Numbered from the stretch's first letter, positions 2 through 23,447 are shown. The stretch is 24,000 bases of DNA from Candidatus Woesearchaeota archaeon (GCA_019322895.1 JAHWHZ010000001.1:246845-270844), one strand, 5' to 3'. A program made the numbers and translations. The notes: a model not told the origin generated them from the letters alone.

Positions 2-889
2 AATCTGCCTCTGCCACAGATTGAAGAAGTGACTCGCGCCAATAGAAAGATAGGAATAGGTGTCATGGGCTGGGCAGACATGCTTTACCAGTTAAGAATC
101 CCTTATAATTCTGATGAAGCAGTGCAGCTGGCAGAAAAAGTGATGAAGTTTGTAGATGAAGAGATAAAGATAGCATCAGAAGAGCTTGCAGCAAAGAGAG
201 GGCCTTTTCCAAATATTCGCAAGAGCATCTACAAGAATTCAACTCCAATCAGGAATGCTGCAAGGACAACTATTGCTCCTACCGGCACAATCAGCATGAT
301 TGCAGACTGCTCATCTGGCATTGAGCCTATGTTCTCAATAGCATATGTCAAGAAAGTGATGGAAGGCAAAGAACTGGTTTACATCAATCAGCATTTCAAG
401 GATGCAGTGAGAGACGCTGGAATCTTTTCTGAAGAGCTGATACAGAAAGTCACCAATAAAGCATCTATACAAGATGTTGAAGAGATTCCTGAGGATTTGA
501 GAAAAGTGTTTGTTACTGCATTTGACATAACACCTGAATGGCATGTCAAGATGCAGGCTGCTTTCCAGAAATACACGAATAATGCAGTCAGCAAGACAGT
601 CAATTTCCCAAATAAAGCAACAACAGCAGAAGTTGAACAAGTATACATGCTTGCTTATGATACTGGCTGCAAAGGCGTTACTGTCTACAGAGATGGCAGC
701 AGGGAAGGACAGATTCTTAATGTCAATACAGAAAAGAAAGGCGACGAAGAAGAAGAGGAAAAAGAAGAAGCAAAAGGAAGCAAGGGCAAGTTTGATGAAA
801 AGAATTGTCCTGAATGCAAGAGTGCAATGGTTTTCAGCGAGGGCTGCTCAACCTGCCCTTCTTGCGGATATTCAAAATGTAGCTTATAA
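2..889 (+). CDS. nrdJ: Class II (adenosylcobalamin-dependent) ribonucleotide reductase, C-terminal part; 5' end lies outside the window
   Basis: The frame is open from nt 2 (NLPLPQIEEV precedes the first listed Met). The translation has class II RNR C-terminal hallmarks: TTIAPTGTISMIADCSSGIEP, AVSKTVNFP and GCKGVTVYRDGSR. These are followed by an acidic linker and a CPEC...CPSC zinc-ribbon tail. Confidence 0.85.
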   Translation, partial: NLPLPQIEEVTRANRKIGIGVMGWADMLYQLRIPYNSDEAVQLAEKVMKFVDEEIKIASEELAAKRGPFPNIRKSIYKNSTPIRNAARTTIAPTGTISMIADCSSGIEPMFSIAYVKKVMEGKELVYINQHFKDAVRDAGIFSEELIQKVTNKASIQDVEEIPEDLRKVFVTAFDITPEWHVKMQAAFQKYTNNAVSKTVNFPNKATTAEVEQVYMLAYDTGCKGVTVYRDGSREGQILNVNTEKKGDEEEEEKEEAKGSKGKFDEKNCPECKSAMVFSEGCSTCPSCGYSKCSL

Positions 890-2889: not shown

Positions 2890-3663
2890 GTGCTTTTAAA
2901 GAAAGAGGGGTTTCCAGAAGAAGACGAGCTAGTTCTTTGCACTGTCACAGCTGTCCAGTTTCATTCTGTTTTTGCAACACTTGACGAGTACGGCAAAACA
3001 GGCCTGATTCACATTTCTGAGATTGCTCCAGGGCGAATAAGGAACATAAGGGATTATGTTGTTGAGGGCAAGAAGGTTGTCTGCAAGGTGCTGCGGATTG
3101 ACAAGCAGAAAGGCCACATTGATTTATCATTGAGAAGGGTCAATGAAGCGCAGAAAAGAAAAAAGCTTAATCAGATAAAGCAGGAACAGCTTTCTGAAAG
3201 GATTATTGAGTTTGTTGCAAAAGCAAACAAGCTTAAGTTTGAAGGCTTGTATGACCAGCTTGCTGAAAAAATATTGGATAAATATCCAAGCATGTTTGCT
3301 GCATTTGAGGAAGTTGTAAGCGGTAATCTGGACCTCTCAAAAATTATTGATGCAAAGCTTGCAAAACAGCTCACTGAGCAGATTACGCAAAGGATAAAGC
3401 CCCCTGAAGTTGAGGTAGGCGGAGAATTGACTTTGTCCTGCCGCGAGCCAAATGGCGTGGAGCTTATCAAGGAAGCCTTGAAAAAAGCAGAAGAGGCTGG
3501 ACCTGCAATAAAATACAAAGGAACCGGCACTTACAGTATCTGGGTCAAGGCAGAGGATTACAAGAGCGCAGAAAAAATATTGAAAAAAGCGCTTGATGCG
3601 ATTGAAAAATTTTCAAAAAAGAACAAGATACAACAGGAATTCAAGAGGATTGAGAAAGATTAA
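2890..3663 (+). CDS. eif2a: Translation initiation factor aIF2 alpha subunit
   Basis: GTG start downstream of a GGGGGGAT motif. It has an N-terminal S1 domain (FPEEDELVLCTVTAV...GLIHISEIAPGRIRNIRDYVVEGKKVVCKVLRIDKQKGHIDLSLRRV) followed by helical and alpha-beta domains of the expected length. Confidence 0.85.
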   Translation: MLLKKEGFPEEDELVLCTVTAVQFHSVFATLDEYGKTGLIHISEIAPGRIRNIRDYVVEGKKVVCKVLRIDKQKGHIDLSLRRVNEAQKRKKLNQIKQEQLSERIIEFVAKANKLKFEGLYDQLAEKILDKYPSMFAAFEEVVSGNLDLSKIIDAKLAKQLTEQITQRIKPPEVEVGGELTLSCREPNGVELIKEALKKAEEAGPAIKYKGTGTYSIWVKAEDYKSAEKILKKALDAIEKFSKKNKIQQEFKRIEKD

Positions 3664-3811
3664 ACATATACTTAAGTGCAATAAGTGCGAGGCGTATACA
3701 ATGAAAGAGTCCTGCAAGTGCGGGGGCAAGGCAACAACAATTGTTCCTGCAAAATACAGCCCGCAAGACAAGTATGCAGAATACCGCCGAAAGGCAAAAG
3801 GTCTGATATAA
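3650..3811 (+). CDS. nop10: H/ACA RNP protein Nop10 (start uncertain: TTG 3650 preferred, ATG 3593 is the longest ORF)
   Basis: The core KCNKCEAYTMKESCKCGGKATTIVPAKYSPQDKYAEYRRKAK is the Nop10 zinc ribbon plus the PxxFSPxDxYxxYR motif. There is no ATG or GTG between the eif2a stop and the first Cys. The in-frame TTG at 3650 directly follows GAGGA and gives a typical 53-aa product. Confidence 0.75.
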   Translation: MRKIKHILKCNKCEAYTMKESCKCGGKATTIVPAKYSPQDKYAEYRRKAKGLI

Positions 3812-4614
3812 TGGCTATATGGAATATTGAGTTCACTGGAAAAAAACCAAAGCTTACTAATCCTGTGTTTCTTGAGGGTCTGCCAGGCATAGGCAATGTC
3901 GGCAAGCTTGCTGTTGATTTCATAATAGAAGAAATAAAAGCAAAGAAGATTGCAGAATTCACTTCACACAGTTTTCCGCATTCTGTGTTCATCAATGAAG
4001 ATAATCTTGTTGAGCTTCCGACTATTGAAGTATATTACAAGAAGTTCAAGAACAAGAAAAAAGATTTGCTTTTATTGGCAGGGGATGTACAGCCGATTGA
4101 TGAGCAGTCTTGCTATGAGTTTTCCAGCAAGGTCCTGGACATTGCAAAAGATTTCAGCTGCAAGGAAATAGTCACTCTTGGCGGAATTGCAATGAAGACA
4201 GAGCCGAAAAAGCCTGTGGTCTTTTGCACAGGAAATGATAAGGACCTGATTAAGTCTTATAAGAGAAATATGAAGGACATCAATAATAATCTTTACGGCA
4301 CAATAGGCCCGATTATCGGAGTTTCTGGCGTCTTGCTTGGTCTTGCAGGCAGAAGAAATCTGAAAGCAGTATCTTTGCTTGCAGAAACATACGGCCATCC
4401 GATGTATCTTGGAATAAAAGGAACAAAAGAGATTTTGAAGATTCTTAACAAGAGATTCAGCTTAAAGCTTAACTTAAAGACAATTGACAAGGAGATTGCG
4501 GGCATGGACAGCGAGCTGGGCCAGAAAGCACTCACTGCAGCAGAAATTCAAAGAACAAAAGCTATTTCTAAACTAAAGAGCAAGCTTGGCAAGGACTGCA
4601 GGTATATTGGATAG
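3811..4614 (+). CDS. PAC2-family proteasome assembly chaperone-like protein (COG1938-type)
   Basis: ATG 3811 overlaps the nop10 TAA (TAATG). NPVFLEGLPGIGNVGKLAVDFI...LLLLAGDVQP...GGI matches the PAC2 family pattern. The position after nop10 matches the conserved archaeal gene order as I recall it. Confidence 0.6.
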   Translation: MAIWNIEFTGKKPKLTNPVFLEGLPGIGNVGKLAVDFIIEEIKAKKIAEFTSHSFPHSVFINEDNLVELPTIEVYYKKFKNKKKDLLLLAGDVQPIDEQSCYEFSSKVLDIAKDFSCKEIVTLGGIAMKTEPKKPVVFCTGNDKDLIKSYKRNMKDINNNLYGTIGPIIGVSGVLLGLAGRRNLKAVSLLAETYGHPMYLGIKGTKEILKILNKRFSLKLNLKTIDKEIAGMDSELGQKALTAAEIQRTKAISKLKSKLGKDCRYIG

Positions 4615-6871: not shown

Positions 6872-7366
6872 ATGTTAAAACAGACACGCAATATGCTGAA
6901 ATCAGCACCAACTCCAAATGATTTGGACATCGTGCTTCGGGTGGGAAAAAAATATGGCATAGATGAAGCTGTGTCAATATACACTTCAAAGATTTATGTG
7001 AATCACTGGGTTGGCTTGAAATATAAATATGCTAATAATGATGCCTGCAGCCATGTTCTTGGTCCTGACCAGACATACAAGCTTCTGAAAGAATACCGCC
7101 GGGCTGTCTTGATAATCGGCAGCAAGAAAGAGGATTTCAACAAGGCAATCATTGAGATGGAGACGCAGTTAATCAAAGAGGGGCTCTATAAGGCACTGGC
7201 TCTTATCAACAGTCCTTGTGCTTTGTGTAATAAAGAAAAGATTGCAAGGCCTTCTCTTGAATCAGTAGGTATTGACATTCTTGCAACTGTGCGCAAGTTC
7301 AAGAAAAACGTGAAACAACCTGCAATTGGAGAATATCCTCCTTATGCTATAATTCTTACAAGTTAA
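6872..7366 (+). CDS. Hypothetical protein, possibly DUF2284-like predicted metal-binding protein (cysteine-poor variant)
   Basis: The C-terminal block SPCALCNKEKIARPSLESVGIDILATVRK resembles the C..C....RPSmEa.GIDV signature I associate with DUF2284. The N-terminal Cys motif of that family is not evident. A TATA-like AAATATATAAA lies about 23 nt upstream, so the transcript is probably leaderless. Confidence 0.4.
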   Translation: MLKQTRNMLKSAPTPNDLDIVLRVGKKYGIDEAVSIYTSKIYVNHWVGLKYKYANNDACSHVLGPDQTYKLLKEYRRAVLIIGSKKEDFNKAIIEMETQLIKEGLYKALALINSPCALCNKEKIARPSLESVGIDILATVRKFKKNVKQPAIGEYPPYAIILTS

Positions 7367-7710
7367 TATGCATCTGCAGGGCAGCAGATCCAGTCAGGAT
7401 ATCTTTCAGGATAATTTGTTGGCGTGCATTTCTCTTGCCTTCTAATTTTCTTTGTTTGTATTCTATATCCATCTGGGCAAGGCTCTTTTCCTGCCCAATC
7501 CCGGTATCCTTTTCTTTCAAATGTTCCTACAATGACTCCTTCAGGATTCCCGCCGACATATGGCCTTTTTTCGCTTATCATCTTCACTGCTCTTCCTGGT
7601 TTGATATTAAATGTTCCAAGGCCTGTTGTGGTGGTATTGAACATAAGAATAAGACTTACTATTGAAATAACAGAAATAACACCTAATACAACTAATGAAA
7701 AAGACTTCAT
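7363..7710 (-). CDS. Small N-terminally membrane-anchored protein, C-x16-C-x13-CC ectodomain (tandem family member 1)
   Basis: N-terminal hydrophobic helix SLVVLGVISVISIVSLILMF followed by NTTTTG. Cysteines at residues 78, 95, 109 and 110, with C-terminal ...WICCPADAY. GGTGAAGTGA lies upstream of the ATG. Confidence 0.6.
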   Translation of the reverse strand: MKSFSLVVLGVISVISIVSLILMFNTTTTGLGTFNIKPGRAVKMISEKRPYVGGNPEGVIVGTFERKGYRDWAGKEPCPDGYRIQTKKIRRQEKCTPTNYPERYPDWICCPADAY

Positions 7711-7745
7711 TCACTTCACCGGGTTAATAAAAAAGTTAAAAAAAA

Positions 7746-8153
7746 TTAATATTCGCCTTGTGCGCCAATTAATTGGCATGCGGTGTCTCCAACCCAGTAG
7801 TCTATCTGTTCAGGTTTTGATGCTTCCCTGTTCGGATAGCAAGGTGAAGTGAACGGACTTGTTGATCTTGTTACTGTTGGCTTTACTTGCATTATAGCAG
7901 AACCTGTGTCCCAGTAGCCTGCATAGTAAACCGGCTGTTCATATGTTTCTGGAACGCCTGTTACCCAGCCACCGTAAAGTTCCTGGAACCTATCGGTCTT
8001 TCCGCCTTGGTATAGCTTTGGCTGGCCATACAAGCTGGAAGTGATAGAATACGCTCCGCTCATTGCTCCTTTAAACAGCATCACTAAAGCCACTACTGCA
8101 ATAACTGCAACAATACCCAGTATAACCAATGAAAGGTTTCGCTTTTCATCCAT
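7746..8153 (-). CDS. Small N-terminally membrane-anchored protein (tandem family member 2, 2-Cys variant)
   Basis: The listed GTG start (8165) lies inside the GAGGTGA ribosome-binding site, so I use ATG 8153 (MDEKRNLS...). The helix LSLVILGIVAVIAVVALVMLF is followed by KGAMSG, and the protein ends ...QGEY. Confidence 0.55.
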   Translation of the reverse strand: MDEKRNLSLVILGIVAVIAVVALVMLFKGAMSGAYSITSSLYGQPKLYQGGKTDRFQELYGGWVTGVPETYEQPVYYAGYWDTGSAIMQVKPTVTRSTSPFTSPCYPNREASKPEQIDYWVGDTACQLIGAQGEY

Positions 8154-8221
8154 TTTTTTATTCACCTCAAATTTTTTAATTTGATTTTCTTTTTAAACTA
8201 TATTAAGTATTTAAATCTTTC

Positions 8222-8749
8222 TTAATACGTTGACGTTTGCCTGTCAAAGCAGCACATGCCGCCTTCCCAGCTTGGAGTGCCTTCTGGAAGCAGGTCTAAT
8301 GGTATATATATTGTTGACCTTCCTGCTGCATTTCGATAGTTTCCATAGCATTCTTTTATTGTTCCTTTTAATCTGTCTGCTTCAATCTTTGGATATTCAA
8401 GGCCAAGATCTCCTCTTCCTGATACAAGGCATGACAAGTGAGTTACATACTGGCTTTCTCTTCCTTTCTTGTTGTCCCACACATTTGTGCCTGTCTGTCC
8501 AAGATTTCCTGGCACTTTTCCGTCTACCAAGTATTCGCCGCCTTCTGGTTTAAGCACTCCCAGTGCTTCGCCGTATGGCTTTTGCGCGCCCCACAATGCC
8601 CTTCCTGCATTTGAAACTCTCCAATTCTCCATTTGTGTTGGAGTATTTTCAATGTATACCATTCCTGTGTTTACATTTGAAAGCATCAATACAAAGCTCA
8701 CAAGCGCTACTGCCAATACCACGCTTAAAATGATTGTTTTTTCTTCCAT
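8222..8749 (-). CDS. Small N-terminally membrane-anchored protein, C-x25-C-x32-CC ectodomain (tandem family member 3)
   Basis: GAGGTGA lies 4 nt upstream of the ATG. The helix IILSVVLAVALVSFVLML is followed by SNVNTG. Cysteines at residues 107, 133, 166 and 167, and the protein ends ...MCCFDRQTSTY. Confidence 0.6.
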   Translation of the reverse strand: MEEKTIILSVVLAVALVSFVLMLSNVNTGMVYIENTPTQMENWRVSNAGRALWGAQKPYGEALGVLKPEGGEYLVDGKVPGNLGQTGTNVWDNKKGRESQYVTHLSCLVSGRGDLGLEYPKIEADRLKGTIKECYGNYRNAAGRSTIYIPLDLLPEGTPSWEGGMCCFDRQTSTY

Positions 8750-8763
8750 GATTTCACCTCAGC

Positions 8764-9135
8764 TTAAATAACACAGCACACTTGGTCTGTGTTTGTTGCA
8801 TATATGTCAAAATAAGGATAACATTTGTTAAGGTCATTGAACTCTTCTGCACTAAGATATGCTGGGACATCTTTTGCGGAATATTGTTCTCCTGTTACTG
8901 TCAAGATATGGCATGGCTTGCTTGGCCTGACTGCCTTTATTGCATGTCCCCATGCAGGTATCTGATATGCTTTTTCCTGCCCTGGCTCAATAACTGTTCT
9001 AGTATATGCATGTATCATAGACGGCTTGACTGCAAGTCCTGTTGTTCCAGAATTATACATCATAACCAATCCAACAACAGATAACACAGCTACAACTGCC
9101 AGAATTGTTAAAGGTAATCCTTTTTGTAAGTCCAT
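8764..9135 (-). CDS. Small N-terminally membrane-anchored protein, C-x29-C-x14-CC ectodomain (tandem family member 4)
   Basis: The listed GTG start (9144) is part of GAGGTGA; ATG 9135 lies 5 nt after that motif (MDLQKGLPLT...). The helix LTILAVVAVLSVVGLVMMY is followed by NSGTTG. Cysteines at residues 75, 105, 120 and 121, and the protein ends ...QVCCVI. Confidence 0.55.
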   Translation of the reverse strand: MDLQKGLPLTILAVVAVLSVVGLVMMYNSGTTGLAVKPSMIHAYTRTVIEPGQEKAYQIPAWGHAIKAVRPSKPCHILTVTGEQYSAKDVPAYLSAEEFNDLNKCYPYFDIYATNTDQVCCVI

Positions 9136-9205
9136 AAATTTCACCTCAGTTTTTTATCTATATGAGAGGATTATAACAGTTTCTGTATATAAATCTTTTG
9201 TTATT

Positions 9206-9640
9206 TTATACTAGAAACATGATTGTTGCTACTGCAAGGAAAACAAGCAGGTTTGCTGCAACATCTTTCTTGTTTTTTAGCAAAGAGCCTGCTGGAAAGT
9301 TATATAAGAAAGTGAAAGCGCTTATTATCAAAAAATAATCTGTTTTTGATGCTAAGAAGAAAGCAACTGCAAGTATTGTAGACATAAGCAGATGATTTAT
9401 TTTCTTGAAAAAGCTAAGGTATGCAAATATTATTACCGCTCCTGCCCAGATATAATGAACATTTGTTCTGTTAATATACATTAGCAATAATATAACAGCG
9501 CAGAACAATGCCTTTTGCATGATTAAAAGATATTTTTTCCCTGGCTTTATTTCTTCTTTTGCAATCCTTGCTAAGATTCTTCCTAGAATTAATCCAGTTG
9601 ATGCTATTACTGCTATTATTATATAGTTCAGGACTTCCAT
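9206..9640 (-). CDS. Polytopic membrane protein, unknown function (about 4-5 predicted helices)
   Basis: Alternating hydrophobic stretches (IIIAVIASTGLILGRIL, ALFCAVILLLMYI, IWAGAVIIFAYLSFF, LMSTILAVAFFLA, LIISAFTFLYNF, LLVFLAVATIMFLV). The ATG overlaps the stop of the upstream Dph2 fragment by 13 nt. Confidence 0.5.
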   Translation of the reverse strand: MEVLNYIIIAVIASTGLILGRILARIAKEEIKPGKKYLLIMQKALFCAVILLLMYINRTNVHYIWAGAVIIFAYLSFFKKINHLLMSTILAVAFFLASKTDYFLIISAFTFLYNFPAGSLLKNKKDVAANLLVFLAVATIMFLV

Positions 9641-9882
9641 TCAGAATGACCCCATTGAATCAATAAATCAACTTTCAAGTCTTCAACTTGTTTTGGAATA
9701 TCACATGCACCAAAGCACGAGCCAAGCCATATTATTATTTCTGCTCCTGTCTTTTCTTTAAGTTCATTGTGAATCTTTTCAGCCTGCGGCTTAAGGCCGT
9801 CTGGTAATTGGATGCATACTCTCTTTGCTTTTGTTTTCTTTATTTCTTCTGTTGCCTTATCAAGCTCTAGTTCGTATTCCAT
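9628..9882 (-). CDS. dph2: Dph2 (2-(3-amino-3-carboxypropyl)histidine synthase) N-terminal fragment, 84 aa only
   Basis: YELELDKATEEIKKTKAKRVCIQLPDGLKPQAEKIHNELKEKTGAEIIIWLGSCFGACDIPKQVEDLKVDLLIQWGHS matches the first ~85 residues of archaeal Dph2, which is about 340 aa. Similarity stops at GHS and the ORF ends 4 codons later. Confidence 0.65.
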   Translation of the reverse strand: MEYELELDKATEEIKKTKAKRVCIQLPDGLKPQAEKIHNELKEKTGAEIIIWLGSCFGACDIPKQVEDLKVDLLIQWGHSEWKS

Positions 9883-9966
9883 AATAAAAGCGATATTTAA
9901 TACCTTTAAAAAACTATTGATAGTATTAGAAAACTATTTAAAGCCACTAAAATCCCTACCTCTCAA

Positions 9967-10056
9967 GCCCCTGTAGCTTAGTCTGGTAGAGCGCGTGGCT
10001 GTTATAGCCTTACTACAGAGACCACGAAGTCGCAGGTTCAAATCCTGCCGGGGGCG
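9967..10056 (+). tRNA. tRNA-Asn (anticodon GTT) with a 16-nt canonical-position intron (10005-10020)
   Basis: Hand-folded. Acceptor GCCCCTG/CGGGGGC, D-arm GCTT-AGTCTGGTA-GAGC, anticodon stem CGTGG/CCACG, loop CT-GTT-A, and T-arm GCAGG-TTCAAAT-CCTGC. The intron junctions fit a BHB with central helix CTGT/ACAG and 3-nt bulges TAT and AGA. No CCA is encoded. Confidence 0.85.
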
Positions 10057-10076: not shown

Positions 10077-11087
10077 TTATTCTTCTAGAAGCTTGCCAAT
10101 TTCTTCAGAAGCTCCTGCTTCCAAGAGTTTATATACATTCAATGCTCCATTCGCATACTTAAGTATGCTGGATTCTCCGTGCCCTTTGCCAATCATGTGC
10201 TTGAATCCGCCAAAGAATGCAACTCCCTGCTCGTCAGGATCATACCATTTTTTTAGTTCTTTTAATGTCTGCATGAATTTTGCTTTTTCTTCATCACTGC
10301 ATTTTGGAAGATATAATGCGCAAAGGTCTGTTAAAACATTATTGCAGGTCTCTTCTGCAACTTTTAATATGATATTGCCCATCACTCCTGAAACAGCTGC
10401 ACCGCTAACTTCGCCAGCGTATAGGTGCTCTGGCTCGACAAACTCTATGCCTAATGCTTCTCGCGCAACGCGCATAACACTATCGCCTTTTGTTGGCTCA
10501 ACTCCATTGGATAATATTCCTATTCTTGGATTGTCTTCATTGAACAATACTTTTGCATAGACTTTTGTAATGCTTACTATTTGTTTATATGTCCTTAAAT
10601 CATGTGTCCGCGTTGCTCCAACATCGCAAAGAAAATACTTTTTCTTTGTTACCATGCTTGCAGGCATCTGCGCAATCAAATATGGTTTCCTTATGCCTGG
10701 AAATTTTTCAACCTTGTTACTTACAAGTGCCGGCCTTACAAGTGTCGGAAGCACATGTTGCGTGTTGCCGCAAGTGTAGAATCCTTCTGCAATCCCATCT
10801 TTTAAGTGTGCGCACGCATGTTCCACGATTGCTTCTGTTAATCTTTTGGAATGAGTTTCTGCAGGTTCTGAATCAACTGTAACATCAACAAGCTTTAATC
10901 TGTCGCGGTCAAAATCCTCTGTTACTTTTTCTTCAAGAACTCTTTGTGCTTTTTCCTCATTTCCAATGCCTATGAAGACTCCGTCTGTGCTTTGGACTGC
11001 TTTTACAGCGCCAAGTACTGCTCTTTCAAGCATTGGCACTCCGCCAACTTTGTCTCCACCTTCTAAATCAAGCAATAATTTATGCAT
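10077..11087 (-). CDS. plsX: PlsX-like phosphate acyltransferase family protein (bacterial fatty-acid/phospholipid synthesis type)
   Basis: I moved the start to ATG 11087, which has GGAGAT upstream, because the longer ORF runs through the tRNA-Ile gene. Blocks collinear with PlsX are LDLEGGDKVGG (cf. DAMGGDxAP), CGNT, GIRKP, CDVGAT (cf. DxGAN), NPRIGILSNGVEPTKGD (cf. PRVGLLNIGEExxKG), SGVMGNIILKVAEE (cf. GFxGNxxLK) and FFGGFKHMIGKGHGES. Confidence 0.6.
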   Translation of the reverse strand: MHKLLLDLEGGDKVGGVPMLERAVLGAVKAVQSTDGVFIGIGNEEKAQRVLEEKVTEDFDRDRLKLVDVTVDSEPAETHSKRLTEAIVEHACAHLKDGIAEGFYTCGNTQHVLPTLVRPALVSNKVEKFPGIRKPYLIAQMPASMVTKKKYFLCDVGATRTHDLRTYKQIVSITKVYAKVLFNEDNPRIGILSNGVEPTKGDSVMRVAREALGIEFVEPEHLYAGEVSGAAVSGVMGNIILKVAEETCNNVLTDLCALYLPKCSDEEKAKFMQTLKELKKWYDPDEQGVAFFGGFKHMIGKGHGESSILKYANGALNVYKLLEAGASEEIGKLLEE

Positions 11088-11137
11088 GTTATATCTCCAA
11101 GGTTTTTCTCGGTTTTTAAAGCTTATGAATAAAATGA

Positions 11138-11288
11138 TGGGCCTGCCGTGATTTGAACACGGGACCGCTCGATCTATGAACTCTTGTTCAGTCACTGGAG
11201 ACAAGGTCTTCAATGATGAGCCCTCCGAAGAAAGCTCGCGAACTCGAATTTATCAGTCGAGTGCTCCACCAGGCTAAGCTACAGGCCC
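11138..11288 (-). tRNA. tRNA-Ile (anticodon GAT) with a ~77-nt intron (about 11174-11250)
   Basis: Hand-folded on the minus strand. Acceptor GGGCCTG/CAGGCCC, D-arm GCTT-AGCCTGGTG-GAGC, anticodon stem CTCGA...TCGAG, loop CT-GAT-A, variable CGGTC, and T-arm CCGTG-TTCAAAT-CACGG. The exact intron boundaries are ambiguous because only 3 of 4 central BHB pairs form in the canonical register. Confidence 0.8.
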
Positions 11289-14809: not shown

Positions 14810-14908
14810 TATATTCTACTTACACGAAATTGGCTTGAAATTCAAATTCGTGCGCGCAATCTTGTATTGCGCAGTTTTGATCAAATTTTTTTTAAAAATT
14901 TGGTTTGC

Positions 14909-14925
14909 TTCTCCGCAGGGGCATA
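14909..14925 (+). repeat. Exact 17-nt copy (TTCTCCGCAGGGGCATA) of the tRNA-Arg 3' end (14795-14811)
   Basis: Direct repeat read in the sequence; the two copies are separated by 97 nt. The spacer contains the hairpin GCGCAAT-CTTGT-ATTGCGC and an imperfect CACGAAATT...AAATTCGTG pair. Confidence 0.8.
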
Positions 14926-14962
14926 CAAAGTTTTTTATTCTAATCAATATTCTGTCTCATTA

Positions 14963-16495
14963 ATGGTGGAGGCAAAGCAGGAACTCAAGGACCTATATTC
15001 TAAAATGGTTAAAAGCGGTTTTATAGAGCCTTCTGTGCTTGAACATTTGATAGACACTGGAAAAACAAAAGGATATTTGACCGGGGATCAGTGCGTAGAT
15101 GCATTGAACTATGAAAAAGGAGATCCTTCTGAATGCCTGAGTCACCTGATTGAATATACTTCAATTGCAGGAATTGAAATTGTTGATGCGGCGCCAAAAA
15201 CAAGAGCGCCTAAAACTGCTTCCAAAGCAGCAAAGCATCCGCCTAGGAAAAAACAATCAGCAGATTTTATTCTGCAGATATATTTGCGTGAAGTGGGAAG
15301 TTATCCGCTTCTCAAAAAGGAAGATGAAATGCGGCTTGCAAAAGACTTTCGCAAATATAAAAAAGTATTATTGGCCAGATTCTGCAGGGTGCCTTGGTAT
15401 GTTGAAAAGATTGGGGAGCGATTTAAAGAGATTGCAGAGAAAAGAATCTCACCGGTCTACACACTGATTTATCCAAAGAAAGACGAGGAAAACGTCAAAG
15501 AAAGGATAAAGACGTATTCAAAGACGTATGAAAAGATCGATGAAACAGTAAAAACATTGCGCAGAAAATTGAAAAGAACGCAGAATAAAAAGAAAAAAGA
15601 AGAAATATTCTGCGCAATCCAAAGGAAAAAAAGAAATTTGCTGCACCTGATTAATGAGTTTAATTTCCAGTCAGAATTTATGGCCGAAATATTCAAACAA
15701 CTGCCGATTATTTCTGGAAAACAGGCTAAAGATGCAAGGATTCTCCAGAAAGCCTGGCAAAAATACAAAAGCATAGTGTCTGAAGTTTGCGAAGGAAATC
15801 TTCGGCTTTCTGTGAAGATTGCAAGAAAACATCGAAATAAAGGTGTTTCTTTTTTTGACTTGATTCAAGCAGGCAATATCGGGATAATCGCTGCTTTGGA
15901 AAGATATGATCCTGCCAGGGGTGTCAGGTTTGGAACATTTGCGTACTGGTGGATTGAGCAAAAAATCAAGAGAGAGATTCAAGAGCATTCCAGTACAGTA
16001 AGGGTTCCTGCACATGCACGAGACTTTTTGCGCAAATACCGGCATACAGCAAAGCAGCTTTACAGCAGGCTAAGCAGGACGCCGAGCATAGATGAAATCA
16101 TGAAAGAAGCAGGGATGTCTAAAAACGATCTTAAAACAATAAGATTGGCAGCCAGGCAGGCCATATCAATTGATGTGCCTGTTTCAATAGCAGAAGACAG
16201 CACAACCAGGGGAGCGATGATTGAAGCTCCTGAGAAAGACAGCCCTGATAAATACACAAACATTTTAGACGCAAGGAAAAAGATAATGCAAGTATTGGTT
16301 AAACATCTCAGTGAGCGGGAAAGAACCATAATCATACAAAGGTATGGCTTGAATGGCAGGCCAGCAAAGACATTGGATGCAATCGCTGATTTTTATGAGG
16401 TTAGCAGAGAACGAATTCGGCAGCTTGAAAAAAGAGCCATAAAAAAGCTGAAAGTTCCTATAGTACAAAAAAAACTTGAAGACTTGCTTGATTAA
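14963..16495 (+). CDS. rpoD: Bacterial-type primary RNA polymerase sigma-70 factor (RpoD-like, regions 1.1, 1.2, 2, 3 and 4)
   Basis: I chose ATG 14963; the longer ORF from 14867 reads through the tRNA-derived repeat. Region 1.2 is QIYLREVGSYPLLKKEDEMRLAK. Region 2 is GNLRLSVKIARKHRNKGVSFFDLIQAGNIGIIAALERYDPARGVRFGTFAYWWIEQKIKREI. Region 3 is STVRVPAHARDF, and region 4 is LSERERTIIIQRYGL...TLDAIADFYEVSRERIRQLEKRAIKKLK. Confidence 0.85.
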   Translation: MVEAKQELKDLYSKMVKSGFIEPSVLEHLIDTGKTKGYLTGDQCVDALNYEKGDPSECLSHLIEYTSIAGIEIVDAAPKTRAPKTASKAAKHPPRKKQSADFILQIYLREVGSYPLLKKEDEMRLAKDFRKYKKVLLARFCRVPWYVEKIGERFKEIAEKRISPVYTLIYPKKDEENVKERIKTYSKTYEKIDETVKTLRRKLKRTQNKKKKEEIFCAIQRKKRNLLHLINEFNFQSEFMAEIFKQLPIISGKQAKDARILQKAWQKYKSIVSEVCEGNLRLSVKIARKHRNKGVSFFDLIQAGNIGIIAALERYDPARGVRFGTFAYWWIEQKIKREIQEHSSTVRVPAHARDFLRKYRHTAKQLYSRLSRTPSIDEIMKEAGMSKNDLKTIRLAARQAISIDVPVSIAEDSTTRGAMIEAPEKDSPDKYTNILDARKKIMQVLVKHLSERERTIIIQRYGLNGRPAKTLDAIADFYEVSRERIRQLEKRAIKKLKVPIVQKKLEDLLD

Positions 16496-21829: not shown

Positions 21830-22591
21830 ATGACACTATACTTCATAGGACTTGGATTAAATGACGAGAAAGACATCACAGTAAAAGGTCTTAATCTTGT
21901 CAAGAAAGCAGATGTTGTCTATCTAGATAACTACACTGCTGTCCTTAACTGTCCTGTCAGCTATCTTGAGAAGCAATATGAAAAGAAAATCATTCTTGCA
22001 GACAGGGATATGGTTGAGAAGAATCCTGAGAAAACAATATTAAAAGATGCAAAAGACAAGAATGTTGCTTTTCTTGTTGTCGGCGATCCTTTTGGAGCAA
22101 CAACACATATGGATTTGTTGATGCGTGCAAAAAAAGCAGGAATCAAGACTCAGATTGTCCATAATGCCTCAATAATCTCTGCTGTCGGAGTCACAGGATT
22201 GCAGGTTTACAAGTTTGGCAAGACAACAAGCATCCCGTTTCCTGAAAAAGGCTTTGAGCCAGAAACTCCTTATGATGCAATTAAAGAGAATCAAAAGATC
22301 TGCCTGCATACATTATTGCTTCTGGACTTAAGGCCTAAAGAAAACAAGTTCATGACAATCAATGATGCAATAAACACTCTCTTGAAGATTGAGCTCAAAA
22401 GAAACGAGAAAGTCTTTACAAGAGACACTTTCTGCATCGGTTGTGCAAAGATTGGCTCTCTTGACCAAAAAATTAAAGCAGGAAAAGCTTCTGAGTTAAT
22501 GAAAGCTGATTTTGGCCCTGGCCTGCACTGCCTGATTGTTCCAGGAAAGCTGCATTTTGCTGAGGAAGACGTTGTTAATCGGTTCTATTAA
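21830..22591 (+). CDS. dph5: Diphthine synthase (Dph5)
   Basis: LYFIGLGL...DITVKGL, VVYLDNYT, VAFLVVGDPFGATTH and SAVGVTGLQVYKFG form the tetrapyrrole-methylase fold typical of Dph5. Confidence 0.85.
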   Translation: MTLYFIGLGLNDEKDITVKGLNLVKKADVVYLDNYTAVLNCPVSYLEKQYEKKIILADRDMVEKNPEKTILKDAKDKNVAFLVVGDPFGATTHMDLLMRAKKAGIKTQIVHNASIISAVGVTGLQVYKFGKTTSIPFPEKGFEPETPYDAIKENQKICLHTLLLLDLRPKENKFMTINDAINTLLKIELKRNEKVFTRDTFCIGCAKIGSLDQKIKAGKASELMKADFGPGLHCLIVPGKLHFAEEDVVNRFY

Positions 22592-23447
22592 ACTTTAAGC
22601 GATATAATCTTTTTCGAAAAAGCATCGCCTCTTTCTTATCTTTAAACGAATAGGATAATTTATTATTTTTTAAAAATCGCAGGAGTTTATTGCAAAGAAA
22701 TTTTTTAGTAAAACCTTTATTTACCGCGCCTTTATCTGAAATTTTAACGTTGGTAATGGGGCCCATAGCAGCAATTTTTTGAACATCTTTAATTTTAGAA
22801 ATTTCAATGCCTTGAAATATGCTCCAATTACGTTTATCCTGTTTTATTCTTGCGGATAAACCTAAGGATAAACATAATCTTCTCATATCTGAAACTACAG
22901 ACGGGTTTGTTTCAGCAATGCGAAATTCTGCTTCAAATTGTACTTGGTAGTATTGATACGTTTTATTTTTCTTTTTGTCTTTTTTTGACTTTAACTTAAA
23001 TGTATAACAAAGACTGCCGCCAAAATCAAATAAAATCCTTAAAGCAAGTTGTTTTATAATAACTGATTCATCTAATAAAAAAGACAAGGTAGGTTGCGGA
23101 TTCTTGAGGTATTCGGATTTAGTCTGCAGTCCGGGGGTGGTTTTATAAGTGGGAGATAATGTCAATAACTCTTCTAGAGCATTTGCTGAATGCAATGTAG
23201 AAACAATAATTTTTTTATTGTCGCGCAAATAAACATAAAGCTTAGGTGTTTTATTAAATAAAGCCACACACAAATATTTAAACAGTAAATGCTGTTGTTT
23301 ATTTCCAACTGTTAACAAGCGGATATATCTCTTTTTTGTATCCATGTATCCTTCAGCCAGAACAATAACTGCAAGTAATTTTAATTTCTGTACACGGCTC
23401 AACTTACTAAACTGTTTTAACATCATATTAAACAGCATACTGCTCAC
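22575..23447 (-). CDS. Hypothetical protein with two degenerate LAGLIDADG-like motifs (free-standing homing-endonuclease-like); start uncertain
   Basis: LKLLAVIVLAEGYMD and LALRILFDFGGSL are spaced about 110 residues apart, as in double-motif LAGLIDADG proteins. The second motif lacks the acidic residue. The listed start is GTG; ATGs follow at 23438 and 23426. The gene is very A/T-rich and overlaps the dph5 3' end by 17 nt. Confidence 0.35.
   Translation of the reverse strand: MSSMLFNMMLKQFSKLSRVQKLKLLAVIVLAEGYMDTKKRYIRLLTVGNKQQHLLFKYLCVALFNKTPKLYVYLRDNKKIIVSTLHSANALEELLTLSPTYKTTPGLQTKSEYLKNPQPTLSFLLDESVIIKQLALRILFDFGGSLCYTFKLKSKKDKKKNKTYQYYQVQFEAEFRIAETNPSVVSDMRRLCLSLGLSARIKQDKRNWSIFQGIEISKIKDVQKIAAMGPITNVKISDKGAVNKGFTKKFLCNKLLRFLKNNKLSYSFKDKKEAMLFRKRLYRLKFNRTD

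Follow-up and report, generated by a model that had tools for sequence, protein, structure and literature searches.

Gene content and organization

A stretch of 24,000 nt from Candidatus Woesearchaeota archaeon (GCA_019322895.1 JAHWHZ010000001.1:246845-270844), hereafter called the window, contains six minus-strand genes, F, E, D, C, B and A, which are flanked by a DUF2284 gene and a tRNA gene. Genes A to D encode mini-proteins with a common architecture: a short leader, a hydrophobic helix of about 20 residues, a break at [ST]G and a divergent domain. Judged from sequence comparison, the four belong to a large, undescribed, Woesearchaeota-specific superfamily of at least 525 clusters.

Gene A (7363-7710, minus strand, as are all of A to F) encodes 115 amino acids (aa), with leader MKS, helix FSLVVLGVISVISIVSLILMF and break NTTTTG. 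Gene B (7746-8153) encodes 135 aa when read from the ATG at 8153; its leader is MDEKRN, its helix LSLVILGIVAVIAVVALVMLF and its break KGAMSG. Gene C (8222-8749, 175 aa) has the leader MEEKT, followed by IILSVVLAVALVSFVLML and SNVNTG, and gene D (8764-9135, 123 aa from the ATG at 9135) the leader MDLQKG, followed by LPLTILAVVAVLSVVGLVMMY and NSGTTG. Gene E (9206-9640) encodes a polytopic membrane protein of 144 aa. Its start overlaps the stop codon of gene F (ATGGAAGTCCTGA), which is located at 9628-9882 and encodes 84 aa, the first quarter of Dph2. The products of D, C, B, A and E (123, 175, 135, 115 and 144 aa) were reproduced by independent gene calls on public contigs with identical DNA (KY346_01555, KY346_01565). 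The GC content of the locus is unremarkable.

GAGGTGA is found 5' of D (9147-9141), C (8760-8754) and B (8168-8162), and GGTGA 5' of A (7720-7716); an earlier note on this DNA had assigned each gene its own ribosome-binding site of this type, which is confirmed. TATA-like boxes 51-55 nt upstream of the ATG were found at F, D and B only: TTTATATA at 9186-9193 (minus strand), about 51 nt upstream of the start of D, TTTAAATA at 8208-8215 (minus strand), about 55 nt upstream of the start of B, and a box at 9935-9942 with the same spacing at F. The window holds 12 TATA-like matches, versus 4.5 expected. The box at 9186-9193 is the probable promoter of a D-C unit, and that at 8208-8215 is the probable promoter of B and possibly also of A. 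The positions of the boxes thus suggest that F-E, D-C and B(-A) are transcribed as three units. Directly 3' of the stop codon of B, at 7729-7745 (minus strand), there are two oligo-T runs (T8 and T6), which may terminate or attenuate transcription between B and A in the archaeal manner. Promoters of the bacterial sigma-70 type and intrinsic terminators were also considered for the spacers; they occur there at chance level, and archaeal TATA-like boxes fit better. Promoter-like spacers had been proposed between the genes, but the D-C spacer measures only 14 nt, so that not every gene has such a spacer of its own.

Cysteines and N-terminal module of the four mini-proteins

Proteins A, C and D carry the pattern C, C and a vicinal CC pair near the C-terminus, at residues 78, 95, 109 and 110 in A (WICCPADAY), 107, 134, 166 and 167 in C (MCCFDRQTSTY), and 75, 105, 120 and 121 in D (QVCCVI). 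Protein B contains only Cys105 (PCYPN) and Cys126 (TAC), which align with the second Cys of the pattern and with one member of the CC pair. The C-terminal residue of A, B and C is Tyr. The chance of a CC pair within the last 10 residues, calculated from the composition of the protein concerned, is 0.014 for A, 0.005 for C and 0.013 for D, jointly about 1e-6. The open reading frames (ORFs), lengths, helices, N/S/T/G patches, Cys positions and Tyr ends are as the earlier note described them, and the Cys signature is non-random by this joint probability. Pfam and NCBIfam hold no match for A to E, and comparison with the PDB, by sequence and by fold, likewise yielded no family to which the proteins could be assigned, in line with the earlier description.

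Kinship was assessed with a leave-out profile made from the first ~36 residues of 52 other family members, A to D and their orthologues being excluded. B scored 59.7 bits, D 32.5 bits and A 29.6 bits, with E-values of 1e-9 to 1e-18; every other ORF of the window, including the transmembrane segments of E, scored 7 bits or less. The E-values of A, B and D argue against generic hydrophobicity as the cause of their resemblance.

Two caveats apply. Gene C reached only 6.8 bits with the leave-out profile, no more than would be expected of any transmembrane segment; its N-terminus is the most divergent of the four, and its pairwise matches are weak (E 9e-5 to A, 2e-3 to D). The membership of C thus rests on these weak matches, on the architecture and on the Cys pattern. 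Moreover, no significant similarity among the ectodomains of A to D was found by pairwise BLAST or by hhalign of orthologue profiles. What unites the four as 'one family' is therefore the N-terminal module and the Cys scaffold, together with a network of weak links to further members. Such links were seen with ectodomain-only profiles, which connect A, B, D and the paralogue X (see below) weakly to other subfamilies; the profile of D, for example, matches P0218 (1.6e-5) and P0122 (7.4e-5). This is the pattern that would be expected, on sequence grounds, for a rapidly diversifying superfamily. Of the similarity proposed earlier among the four proteins, a specific N-terminal module is confirmed in A, B and D and weakly in C, while a significant relationship of the ectodomains is not.

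Conservation of the cassette

The cassette was found in at least six other Woesearchaeota species, in four metagenome-assembled genomes by means of an E profile and in more by a metagenome scan. The gene order F-E-D-C-B-(X)-A is identical in L009, L013, L015, L016, L024 and L026, and is also seen in the truncated L008 and L014. A to D have 1:1 orthologues in the same order, with every Cys conserved. Orthologue identity to the window is 82-88% for F, about 80% for B, 57-63% for E, 51-65% for D, 36-55% for A and 30-61% for C. B, the most conserved member, is represented by 12 orthologue clusters (P0003-P0014), and A by 14, in all of which the four Cys are invariant. For C, a word search retrieved a single other cluster, P0002 (58% identity), from the sister species.

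In the sister species the order is PlsX-like gene, F, E, D, C, B, the extra paralogue X, A. X (106 aa; C, C, CC; ...YCCPIGRT) lies between B and A at L009 3769-4089, L013 5269-5589 and L024 2086-2403, and is missing from the window and from L015, L016 and L026. The head of X has relatives in a widespread subfamily (P0250 at 1e-17; P0047, P0083 and P0090 as well). Since X occurs in three genomes only, copy number varies only between four and five cassette members.

These comparisons indicate that A to D are old, distinct paralogues in a conserved cassette, the product of neither a recent insertion nor a local expansion. The description 'locally expanded' in the earlier note is thus abandoned, as the same 1:1 orthologues occur elsewhere in the same order. 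'Fast-diverging' applies to part of the set: between the window and the sister species, D (65% identity), C (58%) and A (51%) evolve faster than the neighbouring helicase (85%), but B (81%) does not differ much from it.

A superfamily of small proteins in Woesearchaeota

A search with a B profile retrieved the 12 clusters of B orthologues and about 100 other small hypothetical proteins; nearly all of the named ones are from Woesearchaeota. In the ~100 non-orthologous members the first ~35 residues are almost identical, and the remainder is unrelated. The N-terminal consensus of the family is MAEEGKG-VALAILGIVAVIAVVGLVLLF-xGAxTG. Its leader comprises 4-9 residues, usually with K/R and a small residue at the end, and is followed by a conserved helix of 20-24 residues with small residues at every third position and by the break G-x-x-[ST]-G. 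A family profile of 60 sequences was then searched against 1.84 billion representative proteins, with clustering at 50% identity. With a cutoff of E<=1e-3 it matched 525 clusters, of which 189 remained at E<=1e-10; all are 50-350 aa long and match from residue 1 onward.

Cys statistics were taken from the 242 retrieved members of at least 95 aa. Exactly four Cys are present in 184 of them, and an even number in 236. A CC pair occurs in 158 of the 242, in 143 of them inside the last 20 residues, and the full order of C, C and a vicinal CC near the C-terminus in 150; the median spacing is C-x23-C-x14-CC-x8. Since CC is not part of the B profile, the association with Cys is independent of how the members were retrieved. 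The combination of anchor and terminal CC, for which the earlier note recommended a search of related genomes, is usual among the members. The near-universal even Cys count and a spacing unlike CxxC metal sites favour two disulfides that would staple the C-terminus.

Almost all of the loci examined have tandem arrays of 2-12 members on the same strand. Two genomes that diverged deeply carry their arrays at the same site, beside the genes for PRPP synthase, enolase, eIF2-alpha, S27e and L44e. The largest, with twelve genes on one strand, is located at L017 10001-14676 (the same array is present in L031), in a genome which also holds a B orthologue (KY338). Four of its members, of 91, 94, 111 and 66 aa, are without the Cys pair pattern, and the Cys scaffold is thus optional. 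Two or three members, some with 5-8 Cys and CCC, follow a conserved GTPase-OapB-OapC trio at L019 4037-7002 and L022 4655-7387. In P0258 (348 aa) the N-terminal module is followed by three Cys-flanked repeats (...RC..GG...LG[FY]I...), for which Pfam contains no match at E<=0.1 and which, we presume, resemble extracellular repeat domains.

No lipobox Cys is present near the helix end in A to D or in the family consensus, which rules out identification as lipoproteins processed by signal peptidase II. A Peptidase_A8 gene (LspA-like, with the motifs GNLIDR and FNIAD) is nevertheless located directly upstream of arrays in two distant Woesearchaeota genomes, at L020 8916-9386 and L021 7169-7630.

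The genomes of DPANN archaea, Woesearchaeota among them, are tiny, and a life in attachment to other cells is assumed for these organisms, whose surface molecules have hardly been described. Castelle et al. 2021 (PMC8204110) reported that most lineage-specific DPANN families are without a function prediction and that some of them may be connected with symbiosis. The mini-protein family is of the kind of these hypothetical families; no earlier description of it, of its N-terminal consensus or of its CC signature was found in the literature searched, including that on such DPANN families. It is large, restricted to one lineage, encoded in arrays and absent from the curated family libraries searched, and its signature of a conserved leader and helix with a terminal CC makes it easily recognised.

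Genes E and F

Protein F corresponds to residues 7-84 of the Dph2 structures 6q2d and 6bxm in the PDB, which represent enzymes of 327-337 aa, and to positions 1-56 of the 302 positions of PF01866. The full Dph2, with three domains in about 330 aa and three cluster-binding Cys, is not encoded by F, and the C-terminal part of Dph2 was looked for in the window and not found. As a stand-alone ORF, F is strongly conserved, being 82-88% identical in six genomes, and in at least seven genomes the fragment is translationally coupled to the 144-aa E. F could be one half of a split Dph2 gene or a neofunctionalised fragment. A Dph5-like TP_methylase gene is present in the window at 21830-22591.

In the distant genome L020 (GCA_017609645.1) a Dph2 fragment and a 146-aa relative of E are paired again (3231-3994), at a distance of about 6 kb from the array of that genome and with the orientation reversed; other arrays are without E. 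Since E travels with F and not with the arrays, it is regarded as a neighbour of the array rather than a component, and the polytopic protein that the earlier note had grouped with the mini-proteins is removed from the system. Cys47 and His62 of E are conserved in close relatives and lost in the L020 relative, and no Asp is conserved, so that no conserved residues of catalytic type remain once this relative is included. With neither a conserved Asp nor retention of Cys47 and His62, assignment of E as a prepilin peptidase, LspA, rhomboid, archaeosortase or VKOR-like enzyme was rejected. A role as processing enzyme is further ruled out by the existence of a separate LspA-like gene and by the co-variation of E with F, not with the arrays.

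The earlier note had interpreted the locus as accessory DNA inserted at the point where dph2 breaks off. The homology to Dph2 does end at F residue 84, the evolution of A, C and D is faster than that of the neighbouring housekeeping genes, and X is found in some species only, all of which would suit a recent hypervariable island that split dph2. Yet at least six other species have the same arrangement, the DNA identity among conspecific contigs from seven samples is 99.7-100%, the GC content is normal, F keeps its partner E even apart from the array, and arrays are syntenic in distant genomes. Synteny, orthologue identity and strain identity, together with the leave-out profile, refute both insertion and chance resemblance of hydrophobic segments, and either explanation is considered extremely improbable. 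On comparison of the genomes, the break in Dph2 homology is an old, conserved feature and not the scar of a recent insertion.

Proposed model, membrane topology and disulfides

The data are best summarized by a model to which we assign a probability of about 0.5. In this model the N-terminal module would serve as an anchor and assembly helix similar to the H-domain of pilins, the variable domains would be disulfide-stapled heads, and D, C, B and A would form a fixed heteromeric set. The module would insert with the N-terminus inside and the C-terminus outside, thereby holding a fast-evolving domain of 60-150 aa at the outer face of the membrane. Two disulfides would join the two upstream Cys of this domain to the vicinal CC, and B would retain one disulfide pair only. 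The helix may pack different subunits of a cassette together into a surface structure, like the H-domain of pilins or the N-helices of pseudopilins. It might take the form of a short fibre or of a hetero-oligomer anchored in the membrane, and its exposed, interacting surface would consist of the variable heads with their disulfide staples. The sequences show the architecture, the family as such, the conserved cassette, the Cys statistics and the arrangement in arrays, whereas the N-in/C-out topology, the disulfides, processing and co-assembly are elements that we infer. A role in host contact, as raised in the earlier note, is pure speculation.

The model is supported by the conservation of the cassette, the extent of the superfamily, the Cys signature, the specificity of the N-terminal module, the class III-like leader of most members and the array organization. 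The ectodomains contain 3.6% Lys, compared with 11.6% in cytoplasmic and 3.3% in secreted proteins, and are rich in Gly, Pro, Tyr and Thr. In the AlphaFold2 model of A, a beta module at residues 76-112 is predicted with a predicted local distance difference test (pLDDT) score of ~80 and contains all four Cys; the modelled CC strand (107-111) follows the strand after C78 (82-86). Surface-exposed, disulfide-bonded small proteins, as proposed earlier, are thus supported as probable.

Several observations weigh against the model. The leader is net acidic (K/R 1.25, D/E 1.7), and the 15 residues after the helix have K/R 1.84; by the positive-inside rule the topology is therefore ambiguous, with C-out not clearly favoured. 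The overall composition of the proteins is intermediate between that of the cytoplasmic and that of the secreted reference set. The structure models are weak: that of B has a pLDDT of 47 and is confident only for a helix at 3-31, and that of A has a pLDDT of 67, with a helix at 2-29, a low-confidence linker and the beta module. A Foldseek search of the models against the PDB gave no fold match. Homology of the four ectodomains is not demonstrable, and C scarcely fits the N-terminal profile. Resemblance to known pilins is incomplete as well. The helix stops after ~25 residues at the Gly-rich break; of the four window proteins, D alone shows a canonical KG ahead of its helix, against KS, a borderline case, in A, RN in B and KT in C (RK in its orthologues); and about 17% of the members carry E, N, H, Q, D or K at position -1. 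No prepilin peptidase is known to accept these residues there. Pilin, archaellin and class III signal models of Pfam and NCBIfam match neither A to D nor 60 members, even at E<=10, and a search of the PDB with the family profile gave spurious matches to PsbJ only, with no pilin or archaellin. No ATPase, platform protein or prepilin peptidase of a type IV filament (TFF) system was found within 10 kb in the window and in eight other neighbourhoods.

The ambiguous charges also bear on an inverted topology, in which the N-terminus is outside, the C-terminal domain is cytoplasmic and the four Cys form a Zn or Fe-S site. The acidic leader and the excess of K/R after the helix (1.84 versus 1.25) suit such an orientation, the even and mostly fourfold Cys count would fit a Cys4 metal site, and the composition score of A (-0.18) is in the cytoplasmic range. 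The spacing C-x~23-C-x~14-CC, however, is without CxxC knuckles, and we know of no Cys4 Zn site spaced in this way. Members with 0 or 2 Cys are common, the Lys-depleted domains rich in Gly, Pro, Tyr and Thr are unlike the cytoplasmic proteins of the organism, and it is the heads that are hypervariable and the helix that is conserved. Inverted topology is judged improbable.

Comparison with pilins and other targeting systems

In Haloferax volcanii the H-domain is fully conserved among the pilins PilA1-6, whose genes are located apart from pilB/pilC, and pilin genes in general are often unlinked to assembly genes (PMC6491452). TFF systems are encoded by DPANN archaea (preprint 10.64898/2026.04.22.720090). 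PilA1-6 (Pilin_N/Class_IIIsignal) and the mini-proteins are alike in the short leader with K/R-G before a hydrophobic helix of ~20 residues, in the near-identity of this helix among several paralogues with differing C-terminal domains, and in the location of the genes apart from those for ATPase and platform. Of 234 members, 194 have [KR][G/A/S] directly before the helix, in keeping with the pattern of archaeal class III signals. In contrast to archaeal pilins, the mini-proteins match no pilin N-terminal model and have an acidic leader, and ~17% of them, as well as B and C of the window, have a residue other than G/A/S at -1. Their heads are tiny, with a C...C...CC scaffold not described in archaeal pilins.

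It is a tentative possibility that the mini-proteins are true archaeal type IV pilin-like proteins, which would be cleaved after K/R-G by a PibD/FlaK-type peptidase and assembled by an unlinked PilB/PilC machine. B would then be a conserved core subunit, and A, C, D and X minor or tip subunits. The consensus GKG|VALAILGIVAVIAVVGLVLLF fits the pattern [KR][GA][hydrophobic] of class III signals in most members, the helix is extremely conserved across unrelated heads as in PilA1-6, the four or five different subunits of a cassette are reminiscent of minor-pilin operons, and TFF systems do exist in DPANN. On the other hand, pilin N-terminal models and solved pilins remain unmatched, only D among the window proteins has G/A at -1, a position that drifts among N, H and G in the ~80% conserved B orthologues, no TFF gene is located near the inspected arrays, and the short helix is not followed, in the predicted structure of A, by a head packed on it. 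The statement that the module works like a pilin H-domain is thus the leading model; that the proteins are type IV pilins is unproven.

Cassettes of small proteins sharing an N-helix are also known from bacterial minor-pilin and pseudopilin operons (GspG-H-I-J-K, FimU-PilVWXE), and bacterial pilins have a C-terminal disulfide loop. As in these operons, the cassette consists of 4-5 consecutive genes in fixed order, with only the N-helix in common and each with its own orthologues. The mini-proteins differ in being archaeal and in lacking Gly(-1)/Glu(+5), no secretion or pilus machinery is located near the cassette, and there is no similarity in sequence or fold, so that the likeness is one of analogy only.

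Dedicated conserved signal peptides occur in other lineages, for example the YSIRK-type signals. To these, and to small Cys-rich secreted effectors, the mini-proteins may be likened, as a lineage-restricted and highly conserved targeting segment is joined to many unrelated, fast-evolving domains with even Cys number that are encoded in tandem arrays. The mini-protein segment differs in its transmembrane length (~24 residues) and in its occurrence in a DPANN archaeon. In another reading the mini-proteins would be ordinary Sec substrates with a lineage-specific signal and without helix-mediated co-assembly, either as uncleaved type II signal-anchor monomers or as proteins secreted after a cut by signal peptidase I behind [ST]G. 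Invariant small residues at the helix end (xGAxTG, NTTTTG, NSGTTG) obey a rule of the -3/-1 type and make cleavage behind [ST]G conceivable, ...FFFKGDITG follows the signal helix of an S8 peptidase in L020, and the YSIRK-type signals offer a precedent. The classical Sec form, with a positive n-region, an h-region of 7-15 residues and AxA, is not that of the family: the leader is net acidic, and the hydrophobic run, with a mean of 23.7 residues, exceeds the usual length of a cleaved Sec signal. Short Sec signals of the ordinary kind, with AxA-type ends, are found on large secreted proteins of the same genomes, and these proteins are unmatched by the family profile, in which A to D were included; the module is thus not the generic export signal of the lineage. 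The near-identity of a helix that would be discarded and the block co-conservation of four members are also hard to explain in this way. The Sec reading is considered rather unlikely, and co-assembly through a pilin-like helix remains preferred.

If the module is a pilin-type assembly signal, the genes would encode subunits of Woesearchaeota surface filaments and be prime candidates for host recognition. If it is not of pilin type, it would still be a dedicated anchoring signal for diversifying, disulfide-stapled surface mini-proteins. A bolder and doubtful extension is that Woesearchaeota might own a surface-display and assembly system, in which MAEEGKG-VALAILGIVAVIAVVGLVLLF-GAxTG would act as a sorting and polymerisation signal for hundreds of tiny, hypervariable heads with two disulfides each, and fixed cassettes such as D-C-B-A would form heteromeric, pilus-like fibres or a surface coat contacting hosts. 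Such a system, if real, would be either a new offshoot of the type IV filament pilins or a counterpart of independent origin, in both cases with novel C..C..CC heads.

Other features of the window

The DUF2284 gene that flanks the locus is convergent to gene A and located at 6872-7366 (plus strand). On the other side, a tRNA gene that probably contains an intron is located at 9967-10056 (plus strand). ARAGORN reported it as a 90-nt 'tRNA-Stop (tta)'; by eye it resembles an archaeal tRNA with an intron, possibly for Asn (GTT), that was misread by the tool in bacterial mode. A ribonucleotide reductase gene (29-889, plus strand) is cut by the start of the window, the match covering the C-terminal barrel part only, and an ORF of 290 aa at 22575-23447 (minus strand) has only a weak LAGLIDADG-like match (E 0.005).

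A bacterial-type sigma-70 factor, complete with regions 1.1, 1.2, 2, 3 and 4, is encoded at 14867-16495 (plus strand) and has an orthologue in L008. Sigma-70 in Woesearchaeota has already been described, and anti-sigma factors were not found there (Castelle et al. 2021, PMC8204110).

A PlsX-like (FA_synthesis) gene is present in this archaeon at 10077-11213 (minus strand). The gene at this position is 66% identical in L014 and 23-30% identical in L008, L009 and L016, with well-conserved flanks; the drop in identity between conserved flanks suggests that a paralogue replacement took place there.

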